64,000 nt of DNA from Candidatus Mycoplasma liparidae (GCA_009884515.1 RHHX01000001.1:254956-318955), one strand, 5' to 3'. Shown: positions 18,334-45,443, counted from the first letter of the stretch. The notes: generated from the letters alone by a model not told the origin. A program made the numbers and translations.

Positions 18334-19464
18334 ATGATTAGTTTATGTTTTGTCTTATTTGGCGATGCTGATTTTAATATTCAAAAATTAAAATTGAATT
18401 TTGATCAAAAATTTAAATATTTAATTTCGTATAACCAAAGAGATGAAAATGAATATTTAAAATTTACCGAATCAGATTTTATAAAAAATAATAAGAATAT
18501 TCATGCTTATTTAGGTAATAAAGTTTATTGAGGTGATATTTCAATTGTTGATTCAATGGTAAATATTATTAATAAAGCTAAAGAAATATTTAACACAAAA
18601 TATGCTTTTGTAATTGATAGTAAAGCTGTTTTAATAAGAAGTTATGATTATATTTTAAATAAACTTGAAAGTAATGAAAATTGTAATTTTTTTGATTTTA
18701 ATGCAAATTGAAAGACAATTTATCGAACAATATATAAAAAAGATGGATTTCATCATTATTATAAGAATATGACGACTTTATTTTATGTATTTAGAAATTA
18801 TGATTTTAAAAACACAACTAGAGAAGTCGGGATGGGAGGTCTAATACGTGTCAAAAAAATAATTTATACTGCTTTTAAAAATAGAAAAAAATATTTAAAA
18901 CAACTTTGAAAAGAAAAAAAATATTCAGAATATTTTTTAATTCAAAAGAAATATTTAAAATCTTTTGGTTGATTTTTTTCAATTCACTTTATTTACTCAA
19001 ACGATAACTTTTGAGTAAGTGAGTATCATGGCTTTAAACCTGAAATTTTCTTCGGAAAAGAAAGTTTAACAGAATATGATAAAGAATTATTAAATAACTG
19101 TTATATGAATTTCGGATTTAATTTTTCTGGTAATTTGAATTACTTATATGATCTTGTAAATTCAGATATTTTTAAGAAAAATTATGAAATGTTTAAAAAT
19201 ATTTGAGCTCCAGAAGAATGTATTTTTTCAGCATCATATATTGAATATAATAAAAATTGAAAAAACGAAAAAACATATACTTATATTTTTAGAAATTTTA
19301 GAGTCTTTTCAAAAAAGAAAAAAAATAATGAATTAAAAGAAATACTTTTTAATGAATCAGATCCTAATTATGGGTATTATTTTTTTTACCGACAAGTTAT
19401 TAATGAAAAAGAATTAGAACAAATTGAAAATTTTTTGATTGAAAATAAAGAAAGAATGAATTAA
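18334..19464 (+). CDS. Trp-rich cytoplasmic protein, paralog A; possible GT14 (core-2/I-branching-like) glycosyltransferase
   Basis: An RBS ggagg lies upstream. The frame was checked as open with 10 TGA codons (376 aa). VYWGDISIVDSMVNII resembles the GT14 V-WG-S-V motif. Confidence 0.6.
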
Positions 19465-19552
19465 ATATTAAATATATTTTTTTTTTGTAATAATTTATAT
19501 TATTTTATGGTGATGAAATTTTTTATTTAGTAAAAATAATTTAAGGATTTTA

Positions 19553-20677
19553 ATGATTACTTTATGCTGTATTTTATTTGGTGATGCTAATTTTAATATT
19601 GAAAAATTAAAATTAAATTTTAATGAAAAATTTAAGTATTTAATCTCATATAATCAAAGAGATGAAAATGAATATTTGAAATTTGTAAAGTCAGATTTTA
19701 TAAAAAAAAACAAAAATATTCATGTTTATTTAGGTAATAAAGTTTCTTGAGGTGATATTTCAATTGTTGATTCAATGGTAAATATTATTAATAAAGCTAA
19801 AGAAATATTTAATACAAAATATGTCTTCATAATTGATAGTAAAACAGTTTTAATAAGAAGTTATGACTATATTTTAAACAAACTTGAAAGTGATGAAAAT
19901 TGTAATTTTTTTGATTTTAATAAAAATTGAAAAACAATTTACCAAAATAAAAAAGATACTTATTATCATAGACCACGAATTATAACTACTTTGTTCTATT
20001 TATTTAGAGATTATAATTTTAAAACTCCAATGGGAGGAGGGTGAAAAGAAGGTTTAATTCGTATTAATGAAATTCTTAGTATTGCTAAAAAAAATAAAAA
20101 AGAATATTTAAAGCGACTTTGAAGAGAAAAAAAATATTTTGAATATTTTTCAATTCAAAAAAAATACTGAAAATCATTTATCAGAATTTTTTCGATTAAC
20201 TTTATTTCCTCATATAGTAATTTTTGAACAACAGAATATCATGGTGCTGATCCTAAAATCTTTTTCGGAAAAGAAACTTTAACAAAAAATGATGAAGATA
20301 TACTAACTAAATGTTTTCTAAATTTCGGATTTAATTTTTCTGGTAGCCTAAATTATCTATATAATCTCGTAAATTCAGATATTTTTAAGAAAAATTATGA
20401 AAAGTTCAAAAATATTATTGGTCCTGAGGAATGAATTTTTTCTTTATCATATACTGAATATAATAAAAATTGAAAAAATGAAAAATCATATACTTGTACT
20501 TTAAGAAATTCAAAAGCTTATTTTAAAAAGAAAAAAGAAAACGAATTAAATAAAACACTTTTTAATAAATTAGACCCTAATTATGGTTATTATTTTTTTT
20601 ATCGAAAAATCTTTAATGAAAAAGAATTGGAAAATATCAAAAAGTTTATAAATAAAAATGAAAATACATTAAACTAA
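19553..20677 (+). CDS. Paralog B of the preceding gene (tandem duplicate)
   Basis: It is collinear with 18334-19464 over its full length, for example MITLCCILFGDANFNIEKLKLNF versus MISLCFVLFGDADFNIQKLKLNF. The frame was checked as open (374 aa). Confidence 0.6.
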
Positions 20678-20707: not shown

Positions 20708-21367
20708 ATGAAAATTGAATTTAAAAAAATTAAAGAATCAAATGTTATTGCAATTGGAGGCATGATTGCTGCCGGCAAAACGACTTTAATCCATAACTTA
20801 TCAAAACTATTAAATTGTTCTGTTATTGAAGAAATTGACCATAATGATGAAATTCAAACAGTACTTCTAAGAGCTTTATATGAAAAAAAGAATGTTGTAG
20901 CACCAGCTGTCTTTCAACTTTACTTTTTCTTAACACGATTTGAAAACTATAAAAAAGCAGCCTCATCAACTGATGATTTCTTTTTAGTTGATAGAACTGT
21001 TTTTGAAGATCGTTTATTTGCTCATAGAAATATGGCAAAAGATCCAATTACTTTCGGTTTTTATGATGTTTTATGAACTAATAAAATTCAAGAATTAATC
21101 TATTCAGTAGGAATTCCTAAACTATATATCATTATTGATATTGAATGAGAACTTTTTAAAGAAAGATTATTTGAAAGAGAAAGAAAAATAGAAACAGATA
21201 ACTATAAATTGAATGAAGAATATTTCAAAAATTTATGATCAGGTTATACTGATTATTTAGTTCAAATATGTCAGACATATGGAATTGATTATATTGTTGT
21301 TAGTGCTAGTGATGAACAAGAAATTAAATTAGATAAAATAATGAAATATTTAAGCACCAAAAACTAA
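20708..21367 (+). CDS. Deoxynucleoside (dA/dG-type) kinase
   Basis: It has the P-loop IGGMIAAGKTTL and a dNK-type LVDRTVFEDRLFA. The frame continues past TGA at 21074. Confidence 0.8.
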
Positions 21368-21448
21368 AAATATTTACTTAATTAATAAGTTTTTTATTGC
21401 ATTTTCTTATTAATTATATTAAAATTAAAATAGTTATTTTAAGTAAAT

Positions 21449-21523
21449 GGCCACATAGCTCAGCGGTAGAGCAACCGGCTGTTAACCGGTTGGTCGTAAG
21501 TTCGATCCTTACTGTGGCCGCCA
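21449..21523 (+). tRNA. tRNA-Asn (GTT)
   Basis: The cloverleaf has acceptor ggccaca/tgtggcc, anticodon loop ct-GTT-aa, T arm gtaag-ttcgatc-cttac and an encoded CCA. Confidence 0.92.
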
Positions 21524-21529
21524 TTTATT

Positions 21530-21606
21530 GGCCCGTTGGTGAAGTGACTCAACACACACGCCTTTCACGCGTGCATTCACGGGTTTGAATCCCGTACGGG
21601 TCACCA
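21530..21606 (+). tRNA. tRNA-Glu (TTC)
   Basis: It has acceptor ggcccgt/acgggtc (one G-U pair), anticodon stem cacgc/gcgtg with loop ct-TTC-ac, and CCA. Confidence 0.9.
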
Positions 21607-21627
21607 TTTAAAACAAACTAAATATAT

Positions 21628-21650
21628 AAGAAAGAAATTACTTTCTTTTT
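21628..21650 (+). other. Terminator-like hairpin inside the tRNA cluster
   Basis: The stem aagaaag / ctttctt is followed by a T run and lies between tRNA-Glu and tRNA-Val. Confidence 0.3.
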
Positions 21651-21652
21651 GT

Positions 21653-21728
21653 GGAGTGTTAGCTCAGTTGGGAGAGCAATTGCCTTACAAGCAATAGGCC
21701 GTGGGTTCGAGCCCCTCACACTCCACCA
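21653..21728 (+). tRNA. tRNA-Val (TAC)
   Basis: It has acceptor ggagtgt/acactcc, anticodon loop ct-TAC-aa and CCA. The T stem has one U-U mismatch. Confidence 0.85.
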
Positions 21729-21732
21729 TTTC

Positions 21733-21807
21733 GCCGTCGTGGCTCAACGGCAGAGCAACTGACTTGTAATCAGTAGGTTGTAGGTTCAACTCCTATCGAC
21801 GGCACCA
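21733..21807 (+). tRNA. tRNA-Thr (TGT)
   Basis: It has acceptor gccgtcg/cgacggc, anticodon loop ct-TGT-aa and CCA. Confidence 0.9.
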
Positions 21808-21830
21808 TTTATAACATTCAATTTATTTGT

Positions 21831-21914
21831 GCACTTGTGGCGGAATGGCAGACGCGCTAGACTTAGGATCTAGTTCCGCGAGGAGTGGGAGTTCAAGTCT
21901 CTTCAAGTGCACCA
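21831..21914 (+). tRNA. tRNA-Leu (TAG), long variable arm
   Basis: It has acceptor gcacttg/caagtgc, anticodon loop ct-TAG-ga, a long variable arm and CCA. Confidence 0.9.
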
Positions 21915-21925
21915 AATTAAACAAT

Positions 21926-21958
21926 AAAAAAGAACAGAATTTATTTCTGTTCTTTTTT
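21926..21958 (+). terminator. Terminator of the tRNA cluster
   Basis: The stem aaaaaagaacagaa / ttctgttctttttt is followed by a T run. Confidence 0.75.
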
Positions 21959-21960
21959 CA

Positions 21961-22573
21961 CTCATTCATAGGTATTTCTTATATTTACTAAAAATTGTTA
22001 TTAGTAAAATATTACATAGAATCGTAAAAATAATTAAAAATCTTTACTCCTTACTAATGAAGATTTTTTTCATGAAATAAAAAGGTTTTTATATACAAAA
22101 TGTAAGATATAATTAAGAGATTAGAAAAAATTTTCGAAAATGAAACATGGATTCATACTACTTTTTCTAATGGGAATAGACTTCATTTAAAATTTGATAT
22201 TAATTCGCTACCACATTGTTTTGGAATACAAAAAATACAAAAATATAAAAAAAAAAATTCTGAAGATATCATAGATAAAATAAAGGAAAACGAATAAATA
22301 TTCAAAAGATAAACAACAACTCAACAATAAAAAATGATTCCAAAGCACTTATATATAATAAAATTGAATGTGTTAACATTTTCTTTTATATAAAAAAATT
22401 TGCTATGTTTTAATTCGTCTATTAAAAATTCAAAATTAGATCATAATTTTGACAGCGTTTATATTATATCTGTAAGAAAAATTGAAAAAGACAAACAATT
22501 AAAAAGGTTTTTAACCAAAAATAACCATATTGCATCTATGAAAAAGATAGCATTAGTACCAAAAAATGAATAG
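21961..22573 (+). repeat. Degraded copy of the ~0.65 kb unit found intact at 47281-47941
   Basis: The leader, hairpin and coding part are collinear with 47281-47941, for example ttcatgaaataaaaaggtttt and ccacattgttttggaataca. Confidence 0.85.
22100..22573 (+). pseudogene. Pseudogene of the 177-aa protein encoded at 47405-47938
   Basis: Codon 2 is TAA where the intact copy has CAA. There are further stops and an internal deletion relative to the intact copy. Confidence 0.85.
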
Positions 22574-22623
22574 ATATTATTCTACAAAACAGTTAAAAAT
22601 GAACTAATCTAGTTTATTTTTTA

Positions 22624-22973
22624 TTAATCATATCATCCACCACTATTAACATAACCTGCTTTTCATAAAACATTAGCAAAATCATTTGCTTATTTTACAC
22701 ATTCACCTCAACTAAGGAGACCAATTTTATCATAACCTCAAAATGCTTTTAGTAGTCCATTACTACCAGTAGGTCCATCAAAAAAAATAATTCTTTTATA
22801 AGGGACCACTAGAACCTATTCCCTCAGAATAAGTTCATCGATAAATTTTATTACCAACAATAACTTCAACAGGGTTAGCAACAATGCTAATAGCAACTAT
22901 TGATAAAATAGTTAGAGTTAATAATGCTGCACCTACTATAAGAATACTTATATATTTTTTTTATATTATTCAT
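22624..22973 (-). pseudogene. Disrupted gene for a signal-anchored, Trp/Gly-rich protein
   Basis: The ATG frame stops after 28 codons. A one-base change in the A8 run (plus-strand T8 at 22955-22962) would give MNNIKKYISILIVGAALLTLTILSIV. More frame breaks lie downstream. Confidence 0.6.
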
Positions 22974-23108
22974 TTATTTTTCTCATAATATTATAATTTT
23001 CTTTTCCCTTATTATTTATAATAAAACATCATTAGAAATAGTTATTTAATATTTTTTTCCTTTATTTATTAATAATCAATTAAAATATTACTTTATAAAG
23101 GAATTTTA

Positions 23109-24239
23109 ATGATTTTAAAAGAAAATTTTTATATCAAAAATATCTTTGAAAAAGATAAGCAAACTATCTTTTTTGACCTTGAAATGGATAAGTATCATTT
23201 ACTACAAATAGGTGCTATCAAAGTCAAGAATAACAAAGTTATCGATAAAATTTCACTATCTTGTTTTAATAGAAAAAAATTGACAACATTTATTCAATAC
23301 TTTTTAAAAATTGATGATCAAAGTTATTTAAAAGATTCTGATTGAGAAATCTATGAAAAGTTTCATAAGTTCTGTTTATCAAGTGATTATATAATTAACT
23401 TTGGTAGTTGAGATGGACACTTTATTAAACTATTAAGATATAAAAACTCTCATAAAGTATCAGGTGAAACAAATGAGAAGTTAGAATTTATTGATATTGA
23501 TGAATTTGCTCTTTGAAAAAAGTACAAAGTTAGATTATCACTAGATGGGTGATCTAATGTGTTTGATTGTGAAAATAAAAACTCTCATGAAGCTTTATTT
23601 GATTCTTATAAACTTTATAATGTTACAAAAGCATTCATTGAAAATGAAGAAGCTGATTTAACTGAAAAAATATTTTTTGAATCAATAAGACCTAGAAAAA
23701 CAATTAATAATATTAAAGAAATTTCTAAGCTTAATTTAAATCAAATAAAAGAAAATGGTTTAGAAAATACCAAGAAGATAACTTTTATTAGTTATAAAAC
23801 CTCAGTTAACCACTTATCACCTACCTATGATGCTGATGATTCAAATAGAATTGATAGAGAAAAGAGTATCAACATTAATATTATTGATGTTGATATGAAT
23901 GGGAAAATTATCAAAAGTATTAAAGAAGAATTTGTTTTAGTTGGTGAAAACATTTATAATGAAGAAAAAGAAATTAAAAATATTATTGTCAGAACAAACA
24001 TATTAGATAATTTAGAACAAACATTAATAATCAGTAATCACTTTAATAAAGATATTGCCCAAGCTTATTTTATAGAAAATAAAAATTTATTTCTTTTTTA
24101 CAAAATTAATTTAACAAAATTAACGGATTATTATCAATGAAGAAATAATGAAAAAGCTTCTTTAGAAAATAAAGAATCCCTTAAAAAATTTATTGATTGA
24201 TCTTTTTTAGTAGTCAATAAATATATAAAAAAAACTTAG
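23109..24239 (+). CDS. DEDDh-type 3'-5' exonuclease domain fused to an uncharacterised C-terminal half
   Basis: Two track ORFs are in the same frame, joined through TGA (checked; 376 aa). Exo I is IFFDLEMD, Exo II-like is NFGSWDGHF, and Exo III is NSHEALFDSYK. Confidence 0.65.
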
Positions 24240-24258
24240 CTTTTATCTAAGTTTTTTT
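24227..24258. terminator. Bidirectional terminator between convergent genes
   Basis: The stem is aaaaaaaacttag / ctaagttttttt. Confidence 0.7.
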
Positions 24259-24261
24259 ATT

Positions 24262-25645
24262 TTAATAAGAAGGATTATTTGTAATATATTCTCGTTTAAC
24301 TATTTTTCTGATTTCAGTTATTTCTTTTTGGGTTATTTCATTATTTAGAACTTTATAATTGTTTAAAGATTTATTAAAATCTTCGATTGTATATTCTCAA
24401 GCTTTATATTTATCTCATTTTTTGTAATTATTATGATTTTCAATTTGACACATAATTCTTAGTAAATTAGTTTTAAAATTTTCTTCTTGATACCATTCAT
24501 CAATTTGTTTTCATCTGATATCATATAGGGCTTCAAATGACTCATCAGATTTAATTCTAATACCCATATCTATTATTACCTTATACATTCCTGTATTAAT
24601 AATATGGAACTTATATAATTTAGGTAAATAATCATGAAGTTTTTCATAACGGTTCATTAATTCATATTTGCTAACTTCTGTTTTGTTCTTTTTTAATACT
24701 TGAATTTTTCTGTTTTCTATTGCTGAACCATAAGGGCATGATATGCAACCAAGTCTTTTAAATCTTAAATTTTGTTTGTCTAAATCCAAATTATGATCAA
24801 AATTATAAGCTTCGTTAATTTCTAATCTTTTTAGTTTTATATATCTTCAAACATCTTTCTCATTTCAAATAGATAATGGCCTACTCATAGGTTTTTTATT
24901 ATTAAAAATATTACATCCACTATCAATTCATGATTTTTTTCTCATTATTGATTCACCTGCCATGGTTCCAATAAAACTAGGACGATTATCTTTTTTTAAC
25001 CCACCTTTTATATAAGTACAACATTTTTCTGAAAAAGGTATAAGAACCAGATAAGGTGTTTTTTGGGGAATAATCCTGATATTTAGCTGGAATTTCAGGA
25101 AATTTCGACATTTTATCATCAAGTAAAAATAATTGTGCCTTACTTAATTTAAAATATGTTGTACTTTCAATATTAAAAATTCAGCTGCTTAAACCTGTTT
25201 TGCTTTTAGAATTTTTTACCCTATTAAGTAAAACAGATGTTTGTTTTGAAAATATTGGATAGCCCTTTTCATCAAGAATTTGATTTCAGGGCATTTTAGG
25301 AGGTTTTATTAATAATTCTTTTATGTATTCATTTTTTTCTCGATATTTTTCACAAGTGTCTTTAATAAACTTTAAAGTTGATGGAAAGGTAATTTCAACT
25401 GCATAAGCAGGTATTAAATATATTTTTGATTTTAATTCTTTATGAACTTCATTAACAAGATGAAACAAAATACTAGAATCCTTACCGCCACTAAAGGAAA
25501 TAGTTATTTCTTCATATTTATTTTTTTCAGCTCATTCAATAAATTCTTTTATTTTCTTTTTTGCTCAAATAATTTTATCATTTAATGGCATATATTTATT
25601 AAGTTCACTAAAATGAATTTTTCTATTTTCGCTACTATCAATCAT
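24262..25645 (-). pseudogene. PAPS-reductase-like PP-loop ATPase gene interrupted by one frameshift
   Basis: The N-terminal frame (ATG 25645) carries ITISFSGGKDSSILF and ends at TAA 24986-24988. The C-terminal frame opens at 25143, carries IPFSEKCCTYIKG, IGTMAGES and RLGCISCPYGS, and ends at TAA 24262-24264. Confidence 0.75.
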
Positions 25646-25676
25646 AAAAAATATTATATTTGTAGATCATAAAATA

Positions 25677-25700
25677 AAAAGCAACTTTAGTTGCTTTTTA
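25677..25700 (-). terminator. Hairpin overlapping the stop of the PD-(D/E)XK gene
   Basis: The stem is aaaaagcaac / gttgcttttt with a 4-nt loop. Confidence 0.55.
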
Positions 25701-26574
25701 CTGTTAAATAGTTTTTAAGTTCTTCTAATTTTTTTAATGATGAATCTGTTGCATTAATTGTAATACTAGCATCTTTCATTGCTCCTCATTTTTTAACTAT
25801 AATTTCAGGTAAATTTTCATCAATAAATAGATGAACTCGAATATTTTCTAAATCTACTGTATATGTATTTAAAATATCATTTTCAGAATTTGCATTTATA
25901 TCAATTCATTTTTTCTTTTTTGTTTTTAATAAATCAGGAAGCGGTTCTAATAAATCATATAAGTCTAATATAGTCTTTGCATCCCTAATGCAAATAAATT
26001 TAACTATGATTATTTTTTTATTTTTTGCTTCTTCTAATTGTCTTATGCTAATAATAAATTCATTATTTTTTTTAGTTGCAGCTTTTACTTCTAAAAAAGT
26101 ATCACCATACTTAAAATCATATAATTCTTCATCTATTAAACGCAAATTATTTTTGAAATCTATATCTAGAATATTTTTACCTTCTATCATAAATAAAGCT
26201 TCAGCTATATCACCATAAATCCTTTTTCTAATATCTTTTATAAATTTTGATTTTGAAAAATATTCAATTATTTTTTCGAAAGCAGATTGGATTGATTTAT
26301 TTTCGTTTAATAATATTTTATTGATTTCTGTACAAACTTCCTCTAAAAAATCAAGATCAAATACTTTTTTATTAAAAGAAAAGTAATGGGCAGAAATATT
26401 TTTATTAATTTTATTATTAAATATTTTATATTCACCTTTGTATTTAATATGGTCATACTTTATTTTTTCAAGATCACCTAAATGCAGATTATTGTAATCT
26501 ATATTTGAAATAAATAATCCATAATTATCATTGTTATTTATTATATCTATTATTCAATTATTTTGATTTTCCAT
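25687..26574 (-). CDS. PD-(D/E)XK motif protein (nuclease-fold candidate), third gene of the operon
   Basis: The frame was checked as open (295 aa). Motifs are RIYGDIAEALFMIEG, then LYDFKYGDTFLEVKAATKK. The ATG at 26572-26574 overlaps the Z1 gene's 3' end by 17 nt. Confidence 0.7.
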
Positions 26575-27958
26575 AGTTTGTGCCCCTAACTAAATCTAAT
26601 TCTTTATCTATTTTTCTTAATTCTGGCTCGATAAGGGAAATATTTTGAATTTCTCCTTCTTTAAAAAGATTAATATATCTTTCACAATTTTCAAGAGCAT
26701 TAAATGTTTTTTCATCCATTAATATTTTCATATGTTTTACTCGATATTCTTTTCTATACCCAAACCATCTACATCTTTGTAATAAAGTATCAACAGTGAT
26801 AATTTCATTTGGAGTGTTCAGGAATAATTCAACCATTAAATTTTCAAATGTATTACCTCTTGAAAGTAAGTGTCCACCAATAATTATTTTGTATGTTTTA
26901 TTTTCTATTCCTTTTTCTTGATTAATATTTTCGGAATTTAGAATTATTATTTCTATTCCGTCGGTATATTTTTTAACAAATTCAATGAATTTATCTTTTT
27001 CAATTGATGTTTTTTCAAAATACTTATTATAAAAAAAATCATAATTATCTTTCATTGATCTGATTATTTTCGAGCAACTTCTTGCTATTTCTTCATGCTT
27101 TGATGTTTCTAAAAATCAATTAATTAATAAATCAGAATCAATATTTTTTACTTCAAAACTATCTTTTTGTTCAAAATATAAATTATATGAAGCAATAAAA
27201 TGTGTAATTATAGATTTTCTTAATTTTGCATGTTGAATATCTTCGCCAGTTTCTATATCATCTTCTAAATTAGTGATATATATTTCTTCTTTTTTTTCAT
27301 TAAAATATTTTCAACCAGTATAACCATCTCCTGGTTTTCACGAAAATATTTTTCTAGCTTTTAAAGAAATAGAACTACTACTTAAAATATTACCATATGG
27401 TGTTGCAGTAACTTTTAATAGTTTTGAATTATAAAATCTTTCAAATATTTCTTTAATTGCTACATATAATGCACTAGGATTACTTTCTGATTTTTCTATA
27501 TTAATTGAACCAAAATCAGATTCATCATCAATTATTAAAACTTTTTTATCTCTTAAATCAATATCATCAAAAATATTTTTTCTAAGATTATCAATAGTTT
27601 TTGCATTTTTAATGATATTGAACAATGATGGTATATTTTTATTGAATGATTTTTCAGAATCTTTTATAATTTGTATTTGCAATTTTCCTGATGTTGTAAA
27701 TTCTATTAATTCTTTTTCTAATCTTGTTTGTGTCTGATTAAGTAAAGAATTAGTATTTCCTCCAAAAATAATAATATAGTTATATTTTAAGTCAATAGCT
27801 GTTTTAATTATTTCTAATATTTTTCTTGTTTTTCCAGATTGAACTTGTGCGATACATAAAACAATTTCATCTTTATCTGATTCTAAAATATTCCGAAAAT
27901 TATATTCTTTGTTTGTGAATATTTCTTTATTTTTTATTTTTTGACCAAGTTCTCACAT
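26558..27958 (-). CDS. Z1-domain protein with an N-terminal P-loop NTPase module
   Basis: The frame was checked as open (466 aa). Walker A is AQVQSGKTRK and Walker B-like is VLIIDDESDFGS. The Z1 hallmark is IIGGHLLSRGNTFENL...VDTLLQRCRWFGYRKEY. Confidence 0.8.
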
Positions 27959-27969
27959 TTTATCACCCA

Positions 27970-29742
27970 CTATATTTTTTTACAATATGAAACAACATCA
28001 TTAAATGTTGTTATAAAATCTTTTTTAACCATATCATTTATTGTGTTAACTTCATTTGAAATTATCATAATAATAATAATTGGATAAATAATTTTTCCTC
28101 TTATGTTAGTATCCCCATTTATTAAAAGAGGTTTTCAAAAGGAGTGATCATTATTAAAAAAAACTTCAATTCTTTTTTCATCTTGGTTTCTTTTAATTTT
28201 TATTAAATCAGAACCTAATTTATTACTTTCATATATTCTTGCTTCATATTCAGTATCATAAATAAAAAACTTGAAAAAATTATCTCCATTTTCATCCTTA
28301 TTAATTGAACAATTAATATTAGATAAATGATTAGATACAATATTTTTAATAGTTTTTAATTCATCACTATCAACCTTCTCATTTTTTTGATATTTAGTTA
28401 GTTCTACAATATGTTTTATTATTCCTCATAAAGATCTATATAAAAATTTAGTTTGTTCTTGAAGGACTAAATCCGAACTTTTGTCTTTTTCTTCATCATA
28501 TGATCAATCAAATTTAGATTTATTTTTATCAGGACTTTCAATACCAGTTAAATTTATTTCACCATACATTCACCTATAAGTTGGATCAGCTTTTGATTCT
28601 GTAAACATAAGATTACTACATTGTTCACCCTCATTTGGTCCATGATTTATTGCTCTGTCAATATGATATGTAGTCAATCCGGTATATTTTTGTTTGGAAA
28701 AACTATTTTTATCATTTTGAAAATCACCACCTAATATACCAAATGAAATTTTAGTTTCATTTCTATTAAGACGTATTTCTCTTTCAAAAAATAGGTCTTT
28801 CGCACCTAGAAATTTTTCATATGATTCTATTCTTAAATCTAAAAAAGCATTAATGTAGTTAATTGAAGGAAGAACTAATGTTTCGCCTCTTTCACTACAA
28901 TAATTCTTTATTTTTTCTTGTTTTTCGTCATCATTTAAATAATTAATTTCCTCTAATTTTATTAATTCTTTTTTAATTTCTAATTTTATTTCATTAATTT
29001 TATCATCAGATATTTGTTTACTTTTTCCCTTTTGATAATTTATGAATTGACTAAAATTAAACGGAATATTTTTGAATTCTTGAATAAAAACTTTTCCATT
29101 TAAACCACTCCTTTCATCAGCTGCAATGTATGAGAGAGATATTTTTAATCCTCTTTTAATTAATTTAGAATATCTTTGTCCTAATGCATTTTTTATTTCT
29201 GTAAGTCTTGCCTTATTTATTTTTCTATCTCTATAAATATTAGAAATGATAATTTTTGTTCCTGATTCCGAATCAGGAAAAATATTTTCATTTGTTTCTA
29301 CTGCTTGTAATTCTATTGCTTTTGATTTATTTTTTGTTTTTGTTTCAAAATCAATACAATATGTTTTTTCGTCTTTCTTTTTACTATAAACTAAACCATC
29401 TTCTCCAAATCAAAAAATGCCTAATTTCATTCCTATTCCATATTGATTGTAGTCATTATTTGTTTTTCCTTCTCTACTATTAGGTTGCATAGCATTTAAT
29501 AATTCAAGCATATCCATACCATTAGCATTATCACTAATAGTAATCTTTTTGTTTTTAACATCACTATAGTCAATCTCGATATTAATTATTAAACCATCTA
29601 TAGGATTATCAGGATTTTTATTTTTATATGAAGAAACAGAATTGTCAATAAATTCTGATAAAGCTAATCAATGAGTTGTTCTTTCATTTTGATAACCTCT
29701 TATTAATTCATATGTTGCTACAAGTTTTATTGTATTATCCAT
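27970..29742 (-). CDS. GHKL (HATPase_c_3 / MORC-like) ATPase, first gene of the operon
   Basis: The 590-aa frame was checked triplet by triplet and has no TAA or TAG. It is missing from the track because six TGA codons and a scarcity of in-frame start codons break it up. N box is LSEFIDNSVSS, G1 is ITISDNANGMD, and G2 is NQYGIGMKLG. Confidence 0.8.
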
Positions 29743-29803
29743 GCATGTATTCCTTCATTTTTGATCTATAAAATTATATTGAACATTCTTAAATATTAAA
29801 ACC

Positions 29804-29816
29804 AACAATAGTTGTT
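29804..29816. promoter_or_regulatory. Short inverted repeat (aacaa-tag-ttgtt) in the divergent intergenic region; operator candidate
   Basis: It lies between the GHKL-operon start (29742) and the XRE gene start (29855). It is short and could be chance. Confidence 0.2.
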
Positions 29817-29854
29817 CTATAATTATGATTATAAGTAGAAAAATAGAGAATGAG

Positions 29855-30193
29855 ATGGACAAAAATGAAAACAAATCAAAACCCAACGGGGGGGGGGGAG
29901 ACAGTTATAAGCAATATGTTCCTAATATCAAATTATTCATTACTGAATTAAGAAATAAACTACTGAAAATAACTATTGAACAGTTTATTTTCCAAATGGG
30001 CTGAAATAATGTGCAATATTATCAAAAAATAGTTAATGGTTATTATGATAAAAATCATGAAAAAAAATACAGTATTCCAACAATAGATATATTATTTGGA
30101 GGAATTAGTCACGCTATTTATAATTTTGATAATTGAAAAAATAAAGAAAATGAAATTAATGATTTAATAATAGAATTTTTTAAAAATTGATAG
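29855..30193 (+). CDS. XRE-family helix-turn-helix regulator containing a poly-G tract
   Basis: The product is MDKNENKSKPNGGGGDSYKQY..., with an HTH-like ITIEQFIFQMGWNNVQYYQKIVNG. It is in frame with the current G11 tract and ends at TAG 30191-30193 (112 aa). Confidence 0.65.
29888..29898 (+). repeat. Homopolymeric G11 tract (coding, codons 12-15 of the XRE gene)
   Basis: Direct count gives G at 29888-29898. This is the longest G/C run in the window. Confidence 0.95.
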
Positions 30194-30232
30194 AAAAATA
30201 ATCCTATTGATTTTTCAAAAGACAACTATAGT

Positions 30233-30240
30233 TGTATAAT
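30233..30240 (+). promoter_or_regulatory. Extended -10 element TGTATAAT, 8 nt upstream of the HNH gene ATG (near-leaderless mRNA)
   Basis: This is a sequence match only. No clear -35 or SD sequence was seen. Confidence 0.3.
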
Positions 30241-30248
30241 AAATCAAT

Positions 30249-31194
30249 ATGATTAATACGATTGAATGAGAAAAATTTTTAAAAAATATTAACAAAAAAG
30301 CAATATTAAATAGTAAAGAATACAAATGGTTAAAATATCCATATAAACCAGCATTATTATTATCAATAATTGATAGTGTTGAGAGTGGAAAACTGTTCAA
30401 TCAGGATATTGATTTAAATAATTTGAATATTATTAAAAAATATTATGAATATATTACATATAATTATGAATTTTGAAGTTATATTACAAAAAATGAAAAA
30501 TCAAAAAAAGTTTGAGATACCGGGATTAAAAACATTACAGTTCAAAAGCAAGTATTAAGAAATATTTGTGAAATGCCAGCTTCTAAATTGATGACTAATA
30601 ATTCTATTTTTCAATTTGATAATGAAAGCAAGAAAATAAGAATAAATTTATCTATCAATTCAGATGAAATTGAAGAATATAGAAAAGAATTAATTAATGT
30701 TTGTATTTATTCATTAAGAGATAGCAATAAAAATGCTTATGAATGATTAGAAGAAAATAACTATAGTCAATTTAAAGAATATGTTTATGAAAAAATATAT
30801 AGAAAAACTTTGACGTTTTCAAAAAGTAGAGGATATTTGCAACATGTTTTTGCTACTAGTGTTAAAGATAGAGATGGTAAATGCATTGTATGTTGTATTA
30901 ATAGACCGGAATTATTACAAGCATGTCATATCAAACCTTTTTCACAATGTTCTAATCAAATAGAACAAACTGATGCTAATAATGGGATAACTTTGTGTGC
31001 AAATCATCATAAATTATTTGATGTTGGTTTGTTTACATTTGATGAAAAATGAAATATAAAAACTAATAATAAAAAATTATTAGATGATGATATTGATCTT
31101 TTTTTTAAACAATATGAATTTTGTTATTCAAATATTAAAAAAGAATTTGGATTTTTAAATACTTATTTAAAATTTCATAATGAAAAAATATATA

Positions 31195-31211
<17 letters not shown>
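30249..31211 (+). CDS. HNH nuclease (HNH_2-type C-terminal domain) with an uncharacterised N-terminal ~200 aa
   Basis: The frame is open with 6 TGA codons (320 aa). The C-terminal part reads LQACHIKPFSQCSNQIEQTDANNGITLCANHHKLFDVGLFTF, and the N-terminal part reads KYPYKPALLLSIIDSVESGKL. Confidence 0.75.
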
Positions 31212-32950
<1,739 letters not shown>

Positions 32951-32958
<8 letters not shown>

Positions 32959-34231
32959 TTTTATTACAACTTTCTAATTTTAAAAAATTATTAATTTCAT
33001 CAAAACTAATATGATGTTCGATTTTATCAATTTGACTCTTGATAATAACCTTATTATTTTTTATTTCTTCATCACCAATAATAATTATGTTTTTTGTTTT
33101 ATGTTTATCAACGAATTTAAAATGTGTTGATAATTTATATGTTTGATTATTAATGATCACTTTTATATTATCTTTTCTTAAAGTGTTAAGAATTTTCATT
33201 GCATGAATATGACTTTTCTCTGATAAAGGTAAAATAATTACATCATATGTAAAATCATCTAAAAAATCAGGATTTTCTTCAAGAGTTGATATTATCATTC
33301 TTTCAATACCAAGACCAAATCCAATTCCAATCACATCAGGTCCACCAGTTTGTTCTATTAATTTATTATAACGACCACCACCAATAATTGTTGACTGTCC
33401 TTTTAAAATTTTTGAATTTAAAATAAATTCAAAAATAACGCCATTATAATAATCCAATCCTCTAACAAGAATTGGATTTATAATATATTTAATATCCATA
33501 AAATCCATTATTTTTTGAAAATTTTGAAAATATGTTTTTTCTTCATTTGTTAAAAATACTTCAATTTTTGGTGCATTAATAACAAAATCCTTTGAACCAT
33601 CGACTTTATCATCCAAAATCCTTAAAGGATTGACATTAATTCTATTTTGAGAATCTTTAGATAACTTATCTTTATGCTCAAGAAAATAAGTATTTAAAGC
33701 TGCAGTTCATTTATTTCTAGATTCATCACTACCAATATTATTAATTTCTAATTTATAGTTAGTAATTTTTAATTTTCTTAAAATAGTAGTTGCCAATAAA
33801 ATAACATCAACTTCATCATATAAAGTTACATTACCAATGTATTCAACACCAAATTGATTAAATTGTCTTTGTCTTCCTGATTGAGGTCTTTCATATCTAA
33901 ACATTGGACCAATATAATAAACTTTTAAAAAGTTGCTCGTTTTTAAAAGTTTATTTTCAACAATTGCTCTAATAGTTCCAGCAGTACCTTCAGGTCTTAG
34001 AACTAAACTTCTTCCACCTTTATCAGTAAAATCATAAAATTCTTTAGTAACAATATCAGTTGTTTCACCAACTGATTTTATATATAAATCTTTTGATTCA
34101 AAAATAGGAGTTCTTATTTCATTAATATTGAATTCTTCAGCTGTTTCTTTAAAAATTCTTTCAATTTTGCTAAATATTTTAGCATCATTATCAATTAAAT
34201 CAACGGTTCCCCGAGGTCTTTTATAATCCAT
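32951..34231 (-). CDS. hisS: Histidyl-tRNA synthetase
   Basis: Motifs are LRPEGTAG and YYIGPMFRYERPQSGRQRQFNQFGVE. Start is at MDYKRPRGT. The gene overlaps the aspS start by 8 nt. Confidence 0.93.
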
Positions 34232-34248
34232 AAAATAATACTTTATCC

Positions 34249-36387
34249 CTAAATTAATTCTCAATCATCAATAGTATTTCTAAACATTAATTCATTCATT
34301 ATTTTGTCTAAATGTTTATAGTTTTTAACATATAATTCAATATTAATTATACAAGTTTTTTCTATTTTATTTTTATTTAGAAGAAAATAAGAAATATTAG
34401 CCCGATACTTAACAGTGATATTCATTATTTTTGAAGATAGTGAAGTTGATCAAGGAGAATATATTTTTATTTTTGCTTTAAAATAACGATCAGTTTTTTT
34501 AATGTTTGCGAAATTTCATTCAACAACAATTCGTTTTAATTCTTCATTATCTTTAATAGTTTTACAACCAAATCTGTGAATGTTTAAAGTTTTATTTTTC
34601 AAAATTCCCACAATATCTAAAGTAGGTATTTTACTACAACAGTTAGGGATTCCAATTCCATCATATTCAATATTATCAATTTCATTAAATAATGATTTTC
34701 TACGAGAAAAACGATAAGTTAAACTTTTAACTACTTGAACAATATTTTTATCTGGAATATTTGAAAAAATATTAGCAATATCTTCGATTTTAATTTCTTT
34801 AACAAGCTTAATAAAATCTTCAAGTTCTAATTGGTTGTATTCAAGTTTAATAGTTTCTAAAATATGTTCAATCATAATTGAAGAATCTTTAACAATTATT
34901 TCATCTAAGAATTTTTTAATATTTATTTTATCAATATTATCAATTTCTTTTAATTCATTTCTAATGATATTTTTAGTTGCTATTTTCTTTGTTAATTGTA
35001 GTCAATACTTGTTAATTGTTTTAAAATTTGAAAATTCAACTGAAATAATATCACCAGATTCAATAGTTGAGTCTCAAGACACTCTCTTATTATTAATAAA
35101 AAAGGCATTTAAATATGGAAATTTTTCTTTTAAAACTTTTGACACAAAATCAATCGCATTCGAGTTACTAATAATAGAAACCCATTTATTTTCATCTTTG
35201 AAAAAAACTTCAATAATTTTGTTTTTTGAAATTTCTTTAATAGCTAGTAATTTTTCATCTTGTCTAGTAGTACTATCACTTAAATAATCACTAATCATAT
35301 TTTGAATTAAACGTTCTGATTGTTCTTTTTCATGTGATTCTTTGTACTTTCAATGTCCAGCAATACCAAATTCATTTTTAATATCCATTTTTTTAGTTCT
35401 AATTTGGATTTCAATAGTTGAATCTTCATAAATAATAGTTGTATGTAAAGATTGATATAAGTTAGCTTTTGGATTAGAAATATAATCTTTTAAATTTGCC
35501 TTTATATGATAATAGTTTAAATGGATTAAACCTAAAACACTATAACAATCCATAATATCATCAACCATAATTCTAATACCAAATAGATCAGTGCAATTTA
35601 TTATATTAGTTTCAAATTCATTTTTTAAATAAGTAGAATAAACACCTTTAATTCTCTTTTTCATTTCATGATTAATAGAGTTGTTATTTAATAATGAAGC
35701 AATATCATTACTAATTGATTCGAATTTTTCACCCTTAGATGCTATTTCAGCATCAACAGTTTCAGTTAATTCTTTATATTCTTTTGGATGTAAAACTTTG
35801 AAACAAATATTTAACAATTCAGTTTTAATTCAAAATAAACCTAATCTTCCAGCAATATTAGCATAAATTTCAAGAGTTTCTTTTGCTATTACTCTTTGTT
35901 TTTCAGGTTTTAAATACTCAATAGTCTTCATATTATGTAACCGATCAGCTATTTTAATAATAATTGCTCTTAAATCAATTGAAATAGACATAAAAACTTG
36001 AATAATATAATCGTTCTTATCTTCAGATTTATAATCTTCATTGTCTCTGTTTGATTTAGAAATATCAGAAACTTTAGTAACCATTACTACAAGTCGAGTA
36101 ATATCATCACCAAATTTTTTTTTCATTAGTTCTTTAGTACAATCTGTATCTTCAATAACATCATGAAGAATAGCAGCACAAATTGTATTAATATCTAAAT
36201 ATAATTCAATTAAAATAACAGCAACAGCAATTGGATGAATTATATAAGGCTCACCAGATTTACGAAGTTGTTTACCATGTTTTTCATTAGCAAAATCAAT
36301 AGCTTTGTCTACTAATTCCCTTTCTGATTCTGAATAATCAAAGTCAGACATTTTTTTAAGTAAGTCATTTTTTTTCTTTTTAATCAT
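34249..36387 (-). CDS. relA: Bifunctional (p)ppGpp synthetase/hydrolase (RSH family)
   Basis: Four track ORFs share one frame (checked). The HD domain reads HPIAVAVIL...ILHDVIEDT, and the synthetase part reads FGIRIMVDD...YQSLHTTI. Stop is TAG 34249-34251, 17 nt before hisS. Confidence 0.9.
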
Positions 36388-36449
36388 TCAATTCTCATCT
36401 AGAAATTTTATTTAACAAAATTTTATATAATTATATATAATTAATTGAT

Positions 36450-39400
36450 ATGTTTTCTAAAAAAAGTAAAAAATCTCTTTTAAATATTTGAAAAAGATTA
36501 TTAGGTTGATCTTCAATTTCAATTTTAATGTTGGGTGGATTATCTGGAGTTGCAGCATCTGGATATTATATGAGTCAAGATGCAAATTTAGGTTCAGATT
36601 TTGGTTCTGGAACTTCTTTCGATATTCAATTATCTCTTGATGAAACTTTAACTAAGGAACAAAACAATCAAGCAATTCAAGATTCAGCAGTTGCACTTGA
36701 AAATATTTTGAATAATTTGGGTTTATCTCAAGTTTTAGTAAATAGTGGAACAACAACAATTAATAATAATCAAACAGGCGGAATTAGTAAAAAATTCGGT
36801 GTTTTAAGTGCTAGTTTTGATACTTCAAATGAAATATTTGGATTATTAGATATTGATGAAAAAAATAATGAAATTATTAATAATTTCAAAATTTATTCTC
36901 AAGCTTTAAATACTTATAATGTTGAACTTGAAAATATTAGTACTGAATATCCAAATACAAAAACTAGACCAACTGGAAGAACAAATGGTATTAATGGTGT
37001 AATTCTTGATGAAACTACACCTGTTAATTCTTATTTTTTAAATGATGACAAAAATTATAAATCATTAAATGTTCATGATGGTAAATATTTTACTACGGAA
37101 AATGAACTTATTGATATTGGTGAAGCAGTTCAAATCGAATTACCAACCAATAAAGATTTTTTTGCTACATCAAATTTTATTAAAGACAAAAATGATTTTA
37201 ATGAATCAATAGTACCTCCAGAACCACCACCTACTGAAAGATATAAATCTTCTAAAGTTGGTGAAGAACCAGACCCAGAACCACCACCTCCAGATTTAAC
37301 TGATGCTTATCAAACTTCTCAATCTTGAATGCTTTGAAAAGATAAATCTTCATTTATTAATAAATTAAATAATTTGACTTATGCAAGTTTATATAATCTA
37401 TATGCTAATGGTGGAAGAACTGACATTGGAGAATCTAGTATGTCTGATCAACGTTGATTTATCGATCTTGAAGCTAATGCAAAAATTAATCGATATTTAC
37501 AAACATTAAATGATGTTGAAAGATTATTTGTTGAATTTGTTGGTGATCTTGTTTATTTTGATTTAATAGTTACTGAAGCTAATTTAATGACAATCTTATA
37601 TGATTTCTATAATTCAGAAGTATTTGCACCTAATAATTCATATAAAGTGGATATTGCATCAGGAACTCCTAGTAATAAACAATATTCAACTTCTATTATT
37701 AATGGTTGATATTTTCTTGAAAGTGACAACACTGATTTAAGTTCATTATTTGGAACATCTTTATACGGAATGATTGATTATCGAAATTATAAGAATTATT
37801 TCTTTGATGATAATAATGTTGTTATTCAAAATGCGGATGAACCTATTCTTGAATTTAATGATAATTCAATTAGAATAAAACCCAATTCTAAAGTTGATAG
37901 TATCAATATTAGTCCAACTACCCTAAGAAACAAATTAATAGAAACAAGAATTCCTGTTGATTATGGTAATTATTCAAGAAATTTAGTTCTTTTATTTGAT
38001 GAATATCAAGCAATAAATGCATGAAGTGGACCAATTTATAAGCCTGATACTGATACTCAAATACTAACTGATGAAGCTAATCAAAGAAAAGAAAAAATTA
38101 GTAATTTATTTAGTAGTAATACATTATTATCTTTTTCTGGATCTAATATTAGTACTTTAGGTTTAACCTTTATTGGATTATCAGCTTTTGATTTCTTTAT
38201 ATTCTCATTGATTATTTTAATTTTAACAATTGGGATAATTATTTCAGTTTTATATCGATTCCCAGGATTTATATCATTTATAATGGGAGCATCAGCTTTC
38301 GGGTTTTCTATTTTATTTTTCAATTTATTTGGATTAACATTTAATTTCTATGTTTATGCAGCACTTTTTGTTGCAGCATTTATTAATTTTTTCATTCCGT
38401 TATTATTATTTAAAAATGTAAAGAAGGAAGTCAAGCAAGGATCAATGATTGCACCTGCTTTTCAAAAATCAATGTTTAAATATAGCAAGATGTTTGTTGA
38501 TATTTATATAGTTGAAATAATAATAGCGCTTTCGTTCTTTTTCTTTGCAACATCACAAATTTCATCATTTGGAGCAATGTTAGTCGTTAATGCACTGGTT
38601 TCTTTATTAATTAACTATGTATTACTATATTTATTGTTAATAATTTTAATTAGAGTTTATTCAAGTAAAATTAATTTCTTATTTGCTTCTAAAAGAACAT
38701 TATCAATTAATGATCATATAAATAGTGAAGCTTTAAGTTCAAATACAATTGCTAATTTAGAAGATTCTAAATTTAAAAACTTAATTAGAAGTAAACACTT
38801 TTTTACAATAAAATTGTTTAATAAAAGAAACATGTTCATTGCAGCTTTTCCATTTGTAATAGCAATTGTTGGATTTATCTTATTTTTTGCTCTTCCAAAT
38901 GGTGTTGCTGGTTTTAATGGTCAAACAACTGTTGGATCGACTTTAGTTATTAATAACTTTAATATTATCGGATGAACACCACAAGAAATTCTTAAAATGC
39001 TTAATTTAGAAGAAGCAAGTTTCTTTTTAAATATTGATAATGACCAAATGATTATTGCTATTGGTAGTAATTATATAATTCCTACAATTAATAATCCTTT
39101 ATTAACTAATAATTTAAATATTTTTGATTTAAACTTTGTTGCTAATGAAAACTTATTGGCATCGATATCAAATGGAATATTCTTTAGTATGTTGTTTTTA
39201 ATAGTTTGATCTGTTATTTCTTTAAATATTATTTCTGTAATTCCAATTTTAATAATTAATATTTTCTCAACAGGAATATCATTATTATTATCTTGATTAT
39301 TGATTAATTTAATTGGGGTGGAATCAATGGCTTTTGTTAGTATTATTTATGTTTTAAATTCAATACTATCTTTTATTATTGTTTCTTCTTTAAAATCAAG

Positions 39401-39752
39401 TTGAAATCGTAAAAAAGGTGTTTCACATGAATCTTTAAAAGATATTGTTACTCAAATTACTGCTAGATTAAAACCAACATTAATTATTTGAAATACCATC
39501 TTATTATCATTTACATTATTAATGGCTGCTTTTGGAACTGCTAATTTAGTTGTTGGGTTTTTATTGGTTTTCATAAATAGTATAATTATTTACTTAATTA
39601 GCTTATATATCCTTCCTCAACTATGATATATGTTTGTTATTTTAAGAGATAAGTATCAAAATGAAATTAATAATATTTCAAGCAAAAAAATTAGACCATC
39701 AAGTTATGATGTTGTCGATGAACAAAATATAAAGGGTATTAATCACCATTAG
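36450..39752 (+). CDS. secDF: Protein translocase subunit SecDF fusion (1100 aa) with a Pro-rich insert
   Basis: All track fragments (36528, 37770, 38208 and 38997) are in one frame, with gaps checked as TGA only. There are two clusters of about 6 TM helices. It lies next to apt and relA, as in Firmicutes. Confidence 0.75.
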
Positions 39753-39760
39753 GAGTATTT

Positions 39761-40300
39761 ATGAATGAAAATAAACTTAAATTAGTAATGGATAAAATCA
39801 TTACTATTAAAGATTTTCCAAGAAAAGGCATTGCTTTTAAAGATATAACGCCAATTTTTAAAGAACCTGAGTTAGTTAGGATCATTACTAATGCTTTTAT
39901 TGAAAAAATAAAAGATATTGAATATGACATTATTGTTGCTCCTGAATCAAGAGGATTCTTATTTGGAGTAGCTTTATCATTAGCGGTTAATAAACCTTTA
40001 GTGCTAATTAGAAAGCCCGGAAAATTACCAAGAGAAGTTATTTCAATTGATTATGGACTTGAATATGGGAAATCAACAATTGAAATTCATAGAGACGACA
40101 TTAAAAAGAATGATCGGATTCTAATCATTGATGATTTATTAGCAACTGGTGGTACTATTTTTGCTATTGAAACTCTAGTAAAATCAGTGGGAGCAATTTC
40201 AGTTGCAAATTTGTATTTAATTGAATTAGTCGGCTTACAATCTAAAAAATTAGAAAGTGAAAAAATCTCTTTAATAAAATATGAAAAACCATATTTATAA
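39761..40300 (+). CDS. apt: Adenine phosphoribosyltransferase
   Basis: It has the PRPP motif ILIIDDLLATGGT and DFPRKGIAFKDITP. Confidence 0.93.
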   Translation: MNENKLKLVMDKIITIKDFPRKGIAFKDITPIFKEPELVRIITNAFIEKIKDIEYDIIVAPESRGFLFGVALSLAVNKPLVLIRKPGKLPREVISIDYGLEYGKSTIEIHRDDIKKNDRILIIDDLLATGGTIFAIETLVKSVGAISVANLYLIELVGLQSKKLESEKISLIKYEKPYL

Positions 40301-40315
40301 TAATTATTTAAATTT

Positions 40316-40357
40316 AAACTGATCATTTTCCATAATTTGAAAAATGATCAGTTTTTT
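40316..40357 (+). terminator. Rho-independent terminator after apt
   Basis: The stem aaactgatcattttc / gaaaaatgatcagttt is followed by a T run. Confidence 0.8.
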
Positions 40358-40429
40358 ATAATTAAAAGTTTTAATTCTATTTGGTATACTTTATTAAAGT
40401 ATTTAATTTTTTTGAGGTCATTATATAAT

Positions 40430-44533: not shown

Positions 44534-44579
44534 CCCACCACTTATGGAACGATAGTAAGTACACAAAACTCAAGTAATA

Positions 44580-44850: not shown

Positions 44851-44857
44851 TTATATT

Positions 44858-45280: not shown

Positions 45281-45283
45281 AAT

Positions 45284-45427: not shown

Positions 45428-45443
45428 TTATTATCTAAGATTG

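Follow-up and report, generated by a model that had tools for sequence, protein, structure and literature searches.

A probably long-resident defence locus with a young strain-variable slot between a tRNA cluster and aspS in Candidatus Mycoplasma liparidae

Type 3 operons, as described by Iyer, Abhiman and Aravind (2008, PMC2292703), combine a MORC or paraMORC ATPase, a Z1 helicase and a protein with a restriction endonuclease (RE) fold, and they are often linked to DNA methylases (mostly Dcm) and to Vsr. In Corynebacterium, an island of restriction-modification (R-M), Z1 and DUF4420 genes provides an example of clustered defence genes that are exchanged in place from strain to strain (Puigbo et al. 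2017, PMC5379612). Here, we consider a 9.3-kb stretch of Candidatus Mycoplasma liparidae DNA in which genes of these kinds lie between the terminator of a tRNA cluster ending in tRNA-Leu and the 3' end of aspS. The DNA analysed, referred to below as the window, is 64,000 nucleotides long (GCA_009884515.1, RHHX01000001.1:254956-318955), and the stretch occupies its positions 21959 to 31215. A sequence-only reading of the window had taken the stretch for an accessory island inserted as a unit. We favor a different account, to which we assign a probability of about 0.8: the stretch has long resided in the chromosome as a defence locus, at a point where synteny breaks, and consists of three layers that differ in age; it is no recently integrated mobile island.

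In this account, the oldest layer would be a core (23072-31215) inherited vertically since before the genome of the window (G000) split from its two closest relatives among the genomes compared (G009 and G010). The core would hold an orphan exonuclease-like gene (exo); a co-directional, tightly packed string of genes for a GHKL ATPase, a superfamily 2 (SF2) helicase with a Z1 domain, a DUF4420 nuclease, and a PAPS-reductase-like PP-loop protein; a divergent, small, regulator-like gene with a poly-G tract; and then a separate HNH_2 endonuclease gene. The second layer would be a cassette of the small gene and the PAPS-like, GHKL, Z1 and DUF4420 genes, with or without HNH_2, which would recur as a module at many unrelated chromosomal positions. 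The third would be a young slot reaching from the tRNA-Leu terminator to the promoter region of exo, in which gene content would be exchanged between strains with no recombinase at the site.

The window has a GC content of ~22%, and its open reading frames (ORFs) are open solely under genetic code 4 (TGA = Trp); table 11 breaks up all of its genes. Under code 4 and with profile searches, the content from the tRNA-Leu terminator (21958) to aspS (31216) is non-housekeeping throughout, and housekeeping genes stand on both sides: a deoxynucleoside kinase gene (dNK) and the tRNA cluster on the left, and three minus-strand genes, aspS, hisS and relA, on the right. The sequence-only reading had described this arrangement correctly, and its gene inventory holds apart from two soft labels, "XRE" and "exonuclease." The flanks and the core comprise the following features, with lengths in amino acids (aa).

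20708-21367: deoxynucleoside kinase gene (dNK), left flank (Pfam dNK, E 3.6e-21)
21449-21914, plus strand: tRNA cluster Asn-Glu-Val-Thr-Leu, left flank, outside the locus (ARAGORN)
21926-21958, plus strand: terminator hairpin of the tRNA cluster and left breakpoint of the variable slot (terminator scan)
23109-24239, plus strand: exo, a clade-restricted orphan gene of 376 aa with a weak DnaQ-like N-terminal half (NCBIfam PRK06309, E 5e-5)
24262-25645, minus strand: PAPS-reductase-like PP-loop gene, split (Pfam PAPS_reduct on both halves, E 7e-6 each)
25687-26574, minus strand: DUF4420 PD-(D/E)XK-type nuclease gene (Pfam PF14390, E 1e-6)
26558-27970, minus strand: SF2 helicase with a C-terminal Z1 domain (Pfam Z1, E 6.7e-19; ResIII, E 2.5e-6; PADLOC Helicase_II, E 1.7e-39)
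27970-29742, minus strand: GHKL ATPase, presumably of paraMORC type, first gene of the operon (Pfam HATPase_c_3, E 7.7e-18)
29855-30193, plus strand: small conserved gene, divergent from the operon, with a G11 tract at 29888-29898 (homologues beside the cassette at at least 7 loci)
30249-31211, plus strand: HNH_2 endonuclease gene (Pfam HNH_2, E 2.1e-14)
31185-31234: AT-rich palindrome across the convergent HNH and aspS stop codons, right border (inverted repeat I9, 87% complementary)
31216-32958, minus strand: aspS, right flank, outside the locus

The age of the core can be read from its closest relatives. Among the family genomes compared (G001-G135, with contigs numbered C1, C2 and so on), the closest are G010, an uncultured Ureaplasma sp. 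metagenome-assembled genome (MAG; CAMQYY01) whose AspS is 75% identical to that of G000, and G009, with an AspS that is 74% identical. Window positions 385-44533 are collinear, gene for gene, with G010 contig C5, on which the order is aspS, HNH, small gene, GHKL, Z1, DUF4420, PAPS-like (intact, 464 aa), exo, tRNA cluster and dNK. Protein identity between G000 and G010 is 64-80% for the island and 40-92% for 30 flanking genes; the divergence of the island matches that of its flanks. In the fragmented assembly of G009, three contig fragments carry the locus: HNH and the small gene adjoin aspS, GHKL and Z1 are on C29, and the end of the PAPS-like gene is on C27. Because G009 and G010 are sisters (AspS 90% identical) and G000 is their outgroup, the locus is older than that split. 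Insertion of the 9.3 kb as a single island between tRNA-Leu and aspS, as first proposed, is not supported: from exo to HNH, the order is the same in the only close relatives, G010 (in full) and G009 (in fragments).

Base composition and codon usage are native. The tetranucleotide distance of the island to the genome mean lies at the 77th percentile of 385 same-size windows, its GC content is 22.3% versus 23.5% genome-wide (23rd percentile), and the relative synonymous codon usage (RSCU) distances of its genes fall at percentiles 0.21-0.84, within the range of the genome. All three measures are in the native range, so that the compositional difference from the flanks expected of a newcomer, in k-mers or codons, does not appear. 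The sequence-only reading had named a shared gene order in relatives with no compositional difference as the outcome that would overturn it, and for exo to HNH this is largely what we found. It was right, in turn, that the island has no integrase, transposase or direct repeat of the tRNA-Leu 3' end. Pfam and NCBIfam gave no integrase match for any island ORF, the genome has just two tyrosine recombinases (PF00589), both on contig C2, and PF00665 (rve transposase) has zero matches genome-wide. The best local score for a tRNA-Leu 3' end repeat is 12 inside the island (null, 12.6 +/- 1.6) and 10 at the right border (null, 9.6), and repeat finding in the island returned AT-rich chance pairs only and no attachment-site (att)-like repeat.

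What does vary between strains is confined to the DNA beside the tRNA cluster, which in the window holds the following features.

21959-23071: strain-variable slot, here 1.1 kb of gene remnants (comparison of contigs)
22006-22625, plus strand: pseudogene, degenerate copy of the 177-aa ORF at 47405-47938 (79-82% identity, 82-bp deletion)
22590-22973, minus strand: remnant of an ORF encoding a small membrane-anchored protein, disrupted in several frames

A near-identical strain is represented by a metagenome contig of the Joint Genome Institute (JGI), Ga0261694_1000015, of 24.4 kb. This contig is 99.63% identical to window 23072-41211 (18,142 bp, 58 substitutions) and 98.9% identical to window 20809-21958; in between, it carries ~4.1 kb encoding a KAP-family NTPase and, in two pieces, a Schlafen-group-3/DUF2075-type helicase (L095 9300-13102). 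The NTPase matches PADLOC PDC-S20 (E 4e-24) and, more weakly, PifA. In G010 and in the ENA contig k141_20570 (L094), the slot is empty, with no more than ~80 bp and ~15 bp, respectively, from terminator to exo. Identity with both the conspecific JGI contig and G010 stops exactly at 21958, and the three slot states (empty, 1.1 kb and 4.1 kb) share the breakpoints 21958 and ~23072. Strain-level variation ends at 23072 and does not include the 8-kb core. The idea of an integration hot spot by tRNA-Leu thus fits 21959-23071, with its three states, and does not fit the whole 9.3 kb; moreover, the variable DNA starts after the terminator and not in the tRNA. A short imperfect motif at both window junctions (TCATTCATAGG / CATCATTAGA) was considered as a target-site duplication around the slot and attributed to chance, given that the JGI junctions lack it.

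The gene remnants of the slot had been described as a dead copy of a repeat unit and a frameshifted membrane protein gene. The former is confirmed by the intact ORF at 47405-47938 from which the pseudogene is derived. The latter is present as a broken ORF at ~22590-22973, for which no relative was found anywhere searched. Related DNA occurs elsewhere in the genome: part of the JGI-slot NTPase region has 72-76% identical copies at G000 C1:322496-323220, C1:334184-334419 and C2:147669-148412, and a second accessory stretch at window 44500-50600 contains Panacea/SocA, GyrI-like, NOV_C/DUF3883-type and small HNH-like genes as well as the intact 177-aa ORF; the GyrI-like region of this stretch shares 72% identity with DNA in the JGI slot.

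There is also a second indel: from the PAPS-like gene to exo, G010 and G009 have ~6.6 kb of duplicated paralogues versus 22 bp in the window; with two lineages compared, the change may have gone in either direction. The array of duplicated genes (G010:C5:18197-24800, L013 18197-20000 and L014 1-4800; G009:C27, L089) includes a 348/330-aa pair, a 252/222/256-aa family and extra copies of the last ~60 exo residues, and in G009 there is an additional PAPS C-terminal fragment. Homologues of the 252/222-aa family of G010 are found at G000:C2:94366-95055 and 110016-110445, ~1-3 kb from the genome's two tyrosine recombinase genes (C2:95835-96272 and 113188-113631); this C2 locus may be invertible or shuffling. 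To the left of the tRNA cluster, two TGA-rich paralogues of ~375 aa, neither matched in Pfam, lie in tandem at window 18334-20677. They are also tandem in G010 (64-71% identical), and the duplication is therefore older than the species split.

If the core were a recent insertion, its flanks might be expected to meet in relatives. The alignment check that had been proposed for this purpose came out negative: tRNA-Leu abuts aspS in no relative examined, and insertion between them is without empty-site support. The tRNA cluster Asn-Glu-Val-Thr-Leu is kept in 12/12 genus genomes, and the AspS proteins of the other genus members are only 45-50% identical to that of G000. In these genomes, tRNA-Leu is followed by ymdB (G011, G002), by the M24 peptidase gene pepP (G012) or by a different GHKL-Z1 pair (G001), and the aspS 3' end faces a three-gene block (G008, G012, G006). 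The same neighbors occur in G000 at C1:14134-14934 (ymdB), C1:9018-10064 (peptidase) and C1:370613-373270 (three-gene block), 84-260 kb from the locus. This displacement places the locus at a rearrangement (synteny) breakpoint. In G001, contig C51 (L067 12575-17506) carries the same tRNA cluster and then a 114-aa ORF, a 320-aa ORF, a 487-aa GHKL ATPase and a 684-aa Z1 helicase of a second type. At the other border, the palindrome at 31185-31234 looks like a bidirectional terminator.

For the three-gene operon, the labels GHKL, Z1 and DUF4420 are upheld by Pfam matches, and these genes and HNH are intact in the window, motifs included. The GHKL start was set from the G010 alignment and the 590-aa JGI gene call. 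In translation, the Z1 helicase shows a Walker A motif (SGKT), DDESD and DTLLQRCRWFG; DUF4420, with its 5' end, and Z1, with its 3' end, share 17 nt, and the DUF4420 score lies just above the cut-off (28.7 versus 27 bits), with a D...EVK motif read from the translation. No methylase domain was found in the locus ORFs (Pfam, NCBIfam) or in the G010-specific ORFs scanned. A second Z1 helicase (G000:C2:247864-249165, 645 aa, 30% identical to that of the window) is kept in G009:C7 and G010:C1, which indicates two Z1-type systems in the genome.

The PAPS-reductase-like gene is frameshifted, as had been noted: PAPS_reduct is matched in two frames, and the indel is located in a homopolymer. The +1 shift falls in a plus-strand A5 run at 25028-25032, which is A4 in the intact JGI allele; G010 is likewise one base shorter there (on the minus strand, C + T5 versus CC + T5 in the window). 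The gene is intact in G010 (464 aa) and in the JGI contig (460 aa). Both halves are still ~80% identical to G010, which makes the break either very recent or an error of sequencing. Some 40 other window genes match G010 over their full length; this speaks against indels being common across the assembly.

The exo gene was first labeled an exonuclease fusion. The gene is real, and the label amounts to one weak NCBIfam match to Pol III epsilon (E 5e-5, far below the cut-off). Only 3 clusters match the protein among 5.8 billion proteins; it is present in 3/61 family genomes, is 76% identical in G010 and has no match in a PDB sequence search. Its AlphaFold model, built from a 3-sequence alignment, has a predicted local distance difference test score (pLDDT) of 41 and is unusable.

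The small gene, in turn, had been called an XRE regulator from a by-eye pattern. The gene is present; Pfam searches with the protein itself and with 8 homologues, and a PDB profile search, gave no significant helix-turn-helix match, so that the label is weaker than first stated. Its G11 tract is the only run of at least 9 G in the window, and the tract is G12 in G010 (L013 about 12440-12460), despite 25% protein divergence and a 22% GC genome. In the JGI contig, the tract is 7 nt shorter (L093 about 9650), and only a 65-aa ORF is called. The window thus combines an in-frame small gene with a broken PAPS-like gene, and the JGI contig an intact PAPS-like gene with a short small ORF. The tract fits phase variation, with the caveat that poly-G lengths are also error-prone in assemblies. 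From GHKL to the small gene, the intergenic sequence (29800-29830) is almost identical in G010 and holds a 5-bp inverted repeat (AACAA TAG TTGTT) and a TTAAAA-16-TATAAT promoter-like site; this element could be an operator.

For the last gene of the core, the HNH label is upheld by Pfam HNH_2. The AlphaFold model of the protein has a pLDDT of 86 overall and of about 90 in the N-terminal domain of ~190 aa, which is mainly helical; VcaM4I and TagI are matched through the HNH part alone. A type IV-like role is plausible. We discarded the idea of a phosphorothioate-binding enzyme: the NCBIfam phosphorothioate-DNA restriction match covers the HNH part only (33.5 versus 180 bits), and no sulfur-binding fold was matched.

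Across the family, Z1 helicases are found in 44/135 genomes and the PAPS-like gene in 45/135. The accessory nature claimed for the block is therefore real at the scale of the family, where Z1 is patchy and sits at other positions; recent insertion of the 8-kb core is not supported. In 12/16 Z1 loci examined, the PAPS-like gene lies directly beside GHKL-Z1-DUF4420, and among the 44 other genomes with a PAPS-like gene, 21 have it on one contig with Z1 within 10 kb, most of the remainder being too fragmented for linkage to be judged. Companions include homologues of the small divergent gene at at least 7 loci and HNH_2 genes at 4, and the neighbors vary by locus (rplJ, pfkB, a hydrolase, one tyrosine recombinase). 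Occurrence at many unrelated positions implies that the module moves or is lost over long timescales. Identity across the family is ~50% for the PAPS-like protein and mostly ~30-37% (range, 24-40%) for GHKL, Z1 and DUF4420; a well-kept modification gene beside diverged restriction genes is the usual pattern. In the Z1-less genomes G050 (C2), G060 (C1), G109 (C1) and G112 (C2), the PAPS-like genes are shorter, split or have internal stops, which suggests that the gene decays after loss of the trio. The nearest relatives outside the Mollicutes are proteins of ~300 aa in phage and integrative and conjugative element (ICE)-like replication modules, one adjoining ParB-N6/N4 methylases and another an SNF2 helicase. 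In the literature we found no description of a system combining PAPS reductase with Z1, GHKL and DUF4420, which is not proof of absence.

How might such a cassette work? We speculate that the GHKL, Z1 and DUF4420 proteins would form an ATP-driven restriction complex, as proposed for operon type 3 (Iyer et al. 2008), and that the PAPS-like enzyme, rather than the customary Dcm methylase, would mark the cell's own DNA by a modification. Switching of the small gene on and off would fall to the poly-G tract, and the HNH_2 enzyme would work separately, perhaps against modified foreign DNA. In the genome of the window, the PAPS-like gene would have suffered a very recent +1 frameshift. Put together, these steps would make the Mycoplasmoidaceae trio, with the 460-aa PP-loop enzyme as its self-marking arm, a methylase-free R-M-like system with a possible sulfur- or adenylation-dependent modification and poly-G phase control, of which the window would carry a "modification-off" allele; we put this forward tentatively, as a possibility and not as our expectation.

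Other histories and other functions have to be weighed against the long-resident defence locus. Could the whole 9.3 kb be one integrative island that entered at the tRNA-Leu 3' end and later lost its integrase and att sites? Several observations would suit such an island: the tRNA cluster adjoins the locus, the cargo consists of defence genes, the cassette is patchy across the family, and the junction by the tRNA is variable. Elsewhere, the cassette of G135 ends ~50 bp from a tRNA-Arg gene, that of G073 has a tyrosine recombinase beside it, and in G001 the other GHKL-Z1 pair follows the same tRNA cluster. Yet there is no integrase or remnant of one, the tRNA 3' end repeat does not rise above chance, and composition is native; order and divergence in the sister lineage are those of the flanks, the flanks are adjacent in no relative, and the strain variation that ends at 23072 excludes the 8-kb core. 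We therefore regard a single integrated island as unlikely. Far less credible still is that the order of tRNA cluster, island and aspS is a chimeric assembly join. With 3 contigs and 85% completeness, the genome may itself be a MAG, but three independent assemblies agree: in G010 and in the JGI contig, the locus is covered from the tRNA cluster through to aspS, and L094 covers the dNK/tRNA-cluster/exo side only. We give this explanation next to no weight.

A different question is whether the block serves defence at all. Its helicase, GHKL, nuclease, PP-loop and exonuclease genes could instead form a lineage-specific DNA repair or nucleotide-metabolism module kept for housekeeping. Patchy presence (Z1, 44/135; PAPS-like, 45/135), varying chromosomal positions and degradation of the PAPS-like gene in several Z1-less genomes are hard to reconcile with such a module, although its stable inheritance and housekeeping-like protein divergence would be explained, as would the conservation of the PAPS-like family (~50%), comparable to that of AspS (45-49%), and the presence of a Z1 helicase in 11/11 genomes of genus g22. 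The domain content also speaks for defence: the trio is that of R-M contexts, the closest non-Mollicute PAPS relatives lie in phage or ICE-like modules beside ParB-methylases, and the HNH_2 domain matches modification-dependent restriction enzymes. We consider a housekeeping role very improbable.

The preferred reading of a long-resident defence locus also has points against it. "Ancestral" here means a single deep comparison, with one independent sister lineage only (G009 and G010); beyond it, AspS identity falls to 45-50% and synteny is gone, which leaves room for an ancient insertion downstream of the tRNA cluster. The different GHKL-Z1 pair right after the same tRNA cluster in G001 would fit a long-lived hot spot, and GC at third codon positions is slightly raised for exo and the PAPS-like gene only (95th-98th percentile). 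All functional roles are drawn from domain content and gene neighborhood. An R-M-like model also sits uneasily with a dead modification gene next to restriction genes that are intact; the difficulty would ease if the frameshift were an assembly error or the operon were switched off.

What does the locus teach beyond this genome? For the calling of islands, it is a caution: tRNA adjacency and non-housekeeping cargo do not prove recent insertion, and here only 1.1 of 9.3 kb varies. The slot is a clean natural case of in-situ cargo replacement in a minimal genome, with base-level breakpoints and no recombinase. The cassette offers a testable hypothesis: comparison shows the PAPS-reductase-like gene to be an integral, well-conserved partner of the trio in the Mollicutes, and no methylase was found at this locus.

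Measured against described systems, the individual proteins show partial likenesses. The HNH_2 protein shares a C-terminal HNH_2 domain with VcaM4I (EVE-HNH) and TagI by sequence (6yex, VcaM4I, E 7e-7) and by fold (Foldseek E 6e-6), whereas its N-terminal domain of ~190 aa matches no EVE, PUA, SRA or other solved reader domain. The PAPS-like protein shares with DndC and with BrxP of BREX type 4 a PP-loop/PAPS_reduct domain and a self-marking position in a defence operon, but it matches both only weakly (BrxP, E 4e-12 for the intact allele; DndC, E 0.002), and no DndA/B/D/E, BrxA/B/C/L or PglZ was found among the island ORFs. Scores for the Mza system are far from the NCBIfam equivalog cut-offs (MzaC, 69.8 versus 1500 bits; MzaB, 14.6 versus 850).

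As a location, the locus shares with tRNA-targeting integrative islands its position directly downstream of a tRNA gene and its accessory cargo; it differs from them in having no integrase, att repeat, compositional signal or empty site and in a variable junction that follows the terminator. As an operon, it corresponds to type 3 (Iyer, Abhiman and Aravind 2008, PMC2292703) in its co-directional genes for a GHKL ATPase of the MORC/paraMORC kind (HATPase_c_3 match), an SF2-Z1 helicase with the motif DThhQxuRhFG and an adjacent RE-fold protein, the PD-(D/E)XK protein now called DUF4420. It differs in that no linked methyltransferase was found and that a 460-aa gene of the PAPS-reductase family is the conserved partner, in at least 21 family genomes. 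With defence islands and hot spots, finally, it has in common defence-type genes clustered between housekeeping genes, near-identical strains that differ in slot content, and the lack of a recombinase at the site. Content is replaced at a fixed place, with shared breakpoints at 21958 and ~23072 and alternative content matching PDC-S20 and PifA. Here, in contrast, 8 kb is non-polymorphic and syntenic across species 25% diverged in AspS, and the hot spot is 1.1 kb. As an island, this is an ordinary defence cluster of a familiar type, mostly old and vertical; any novelty would lie in its PAPS-linked, apparently methylase-free GHKL/Z1/DUF4420 cassette.

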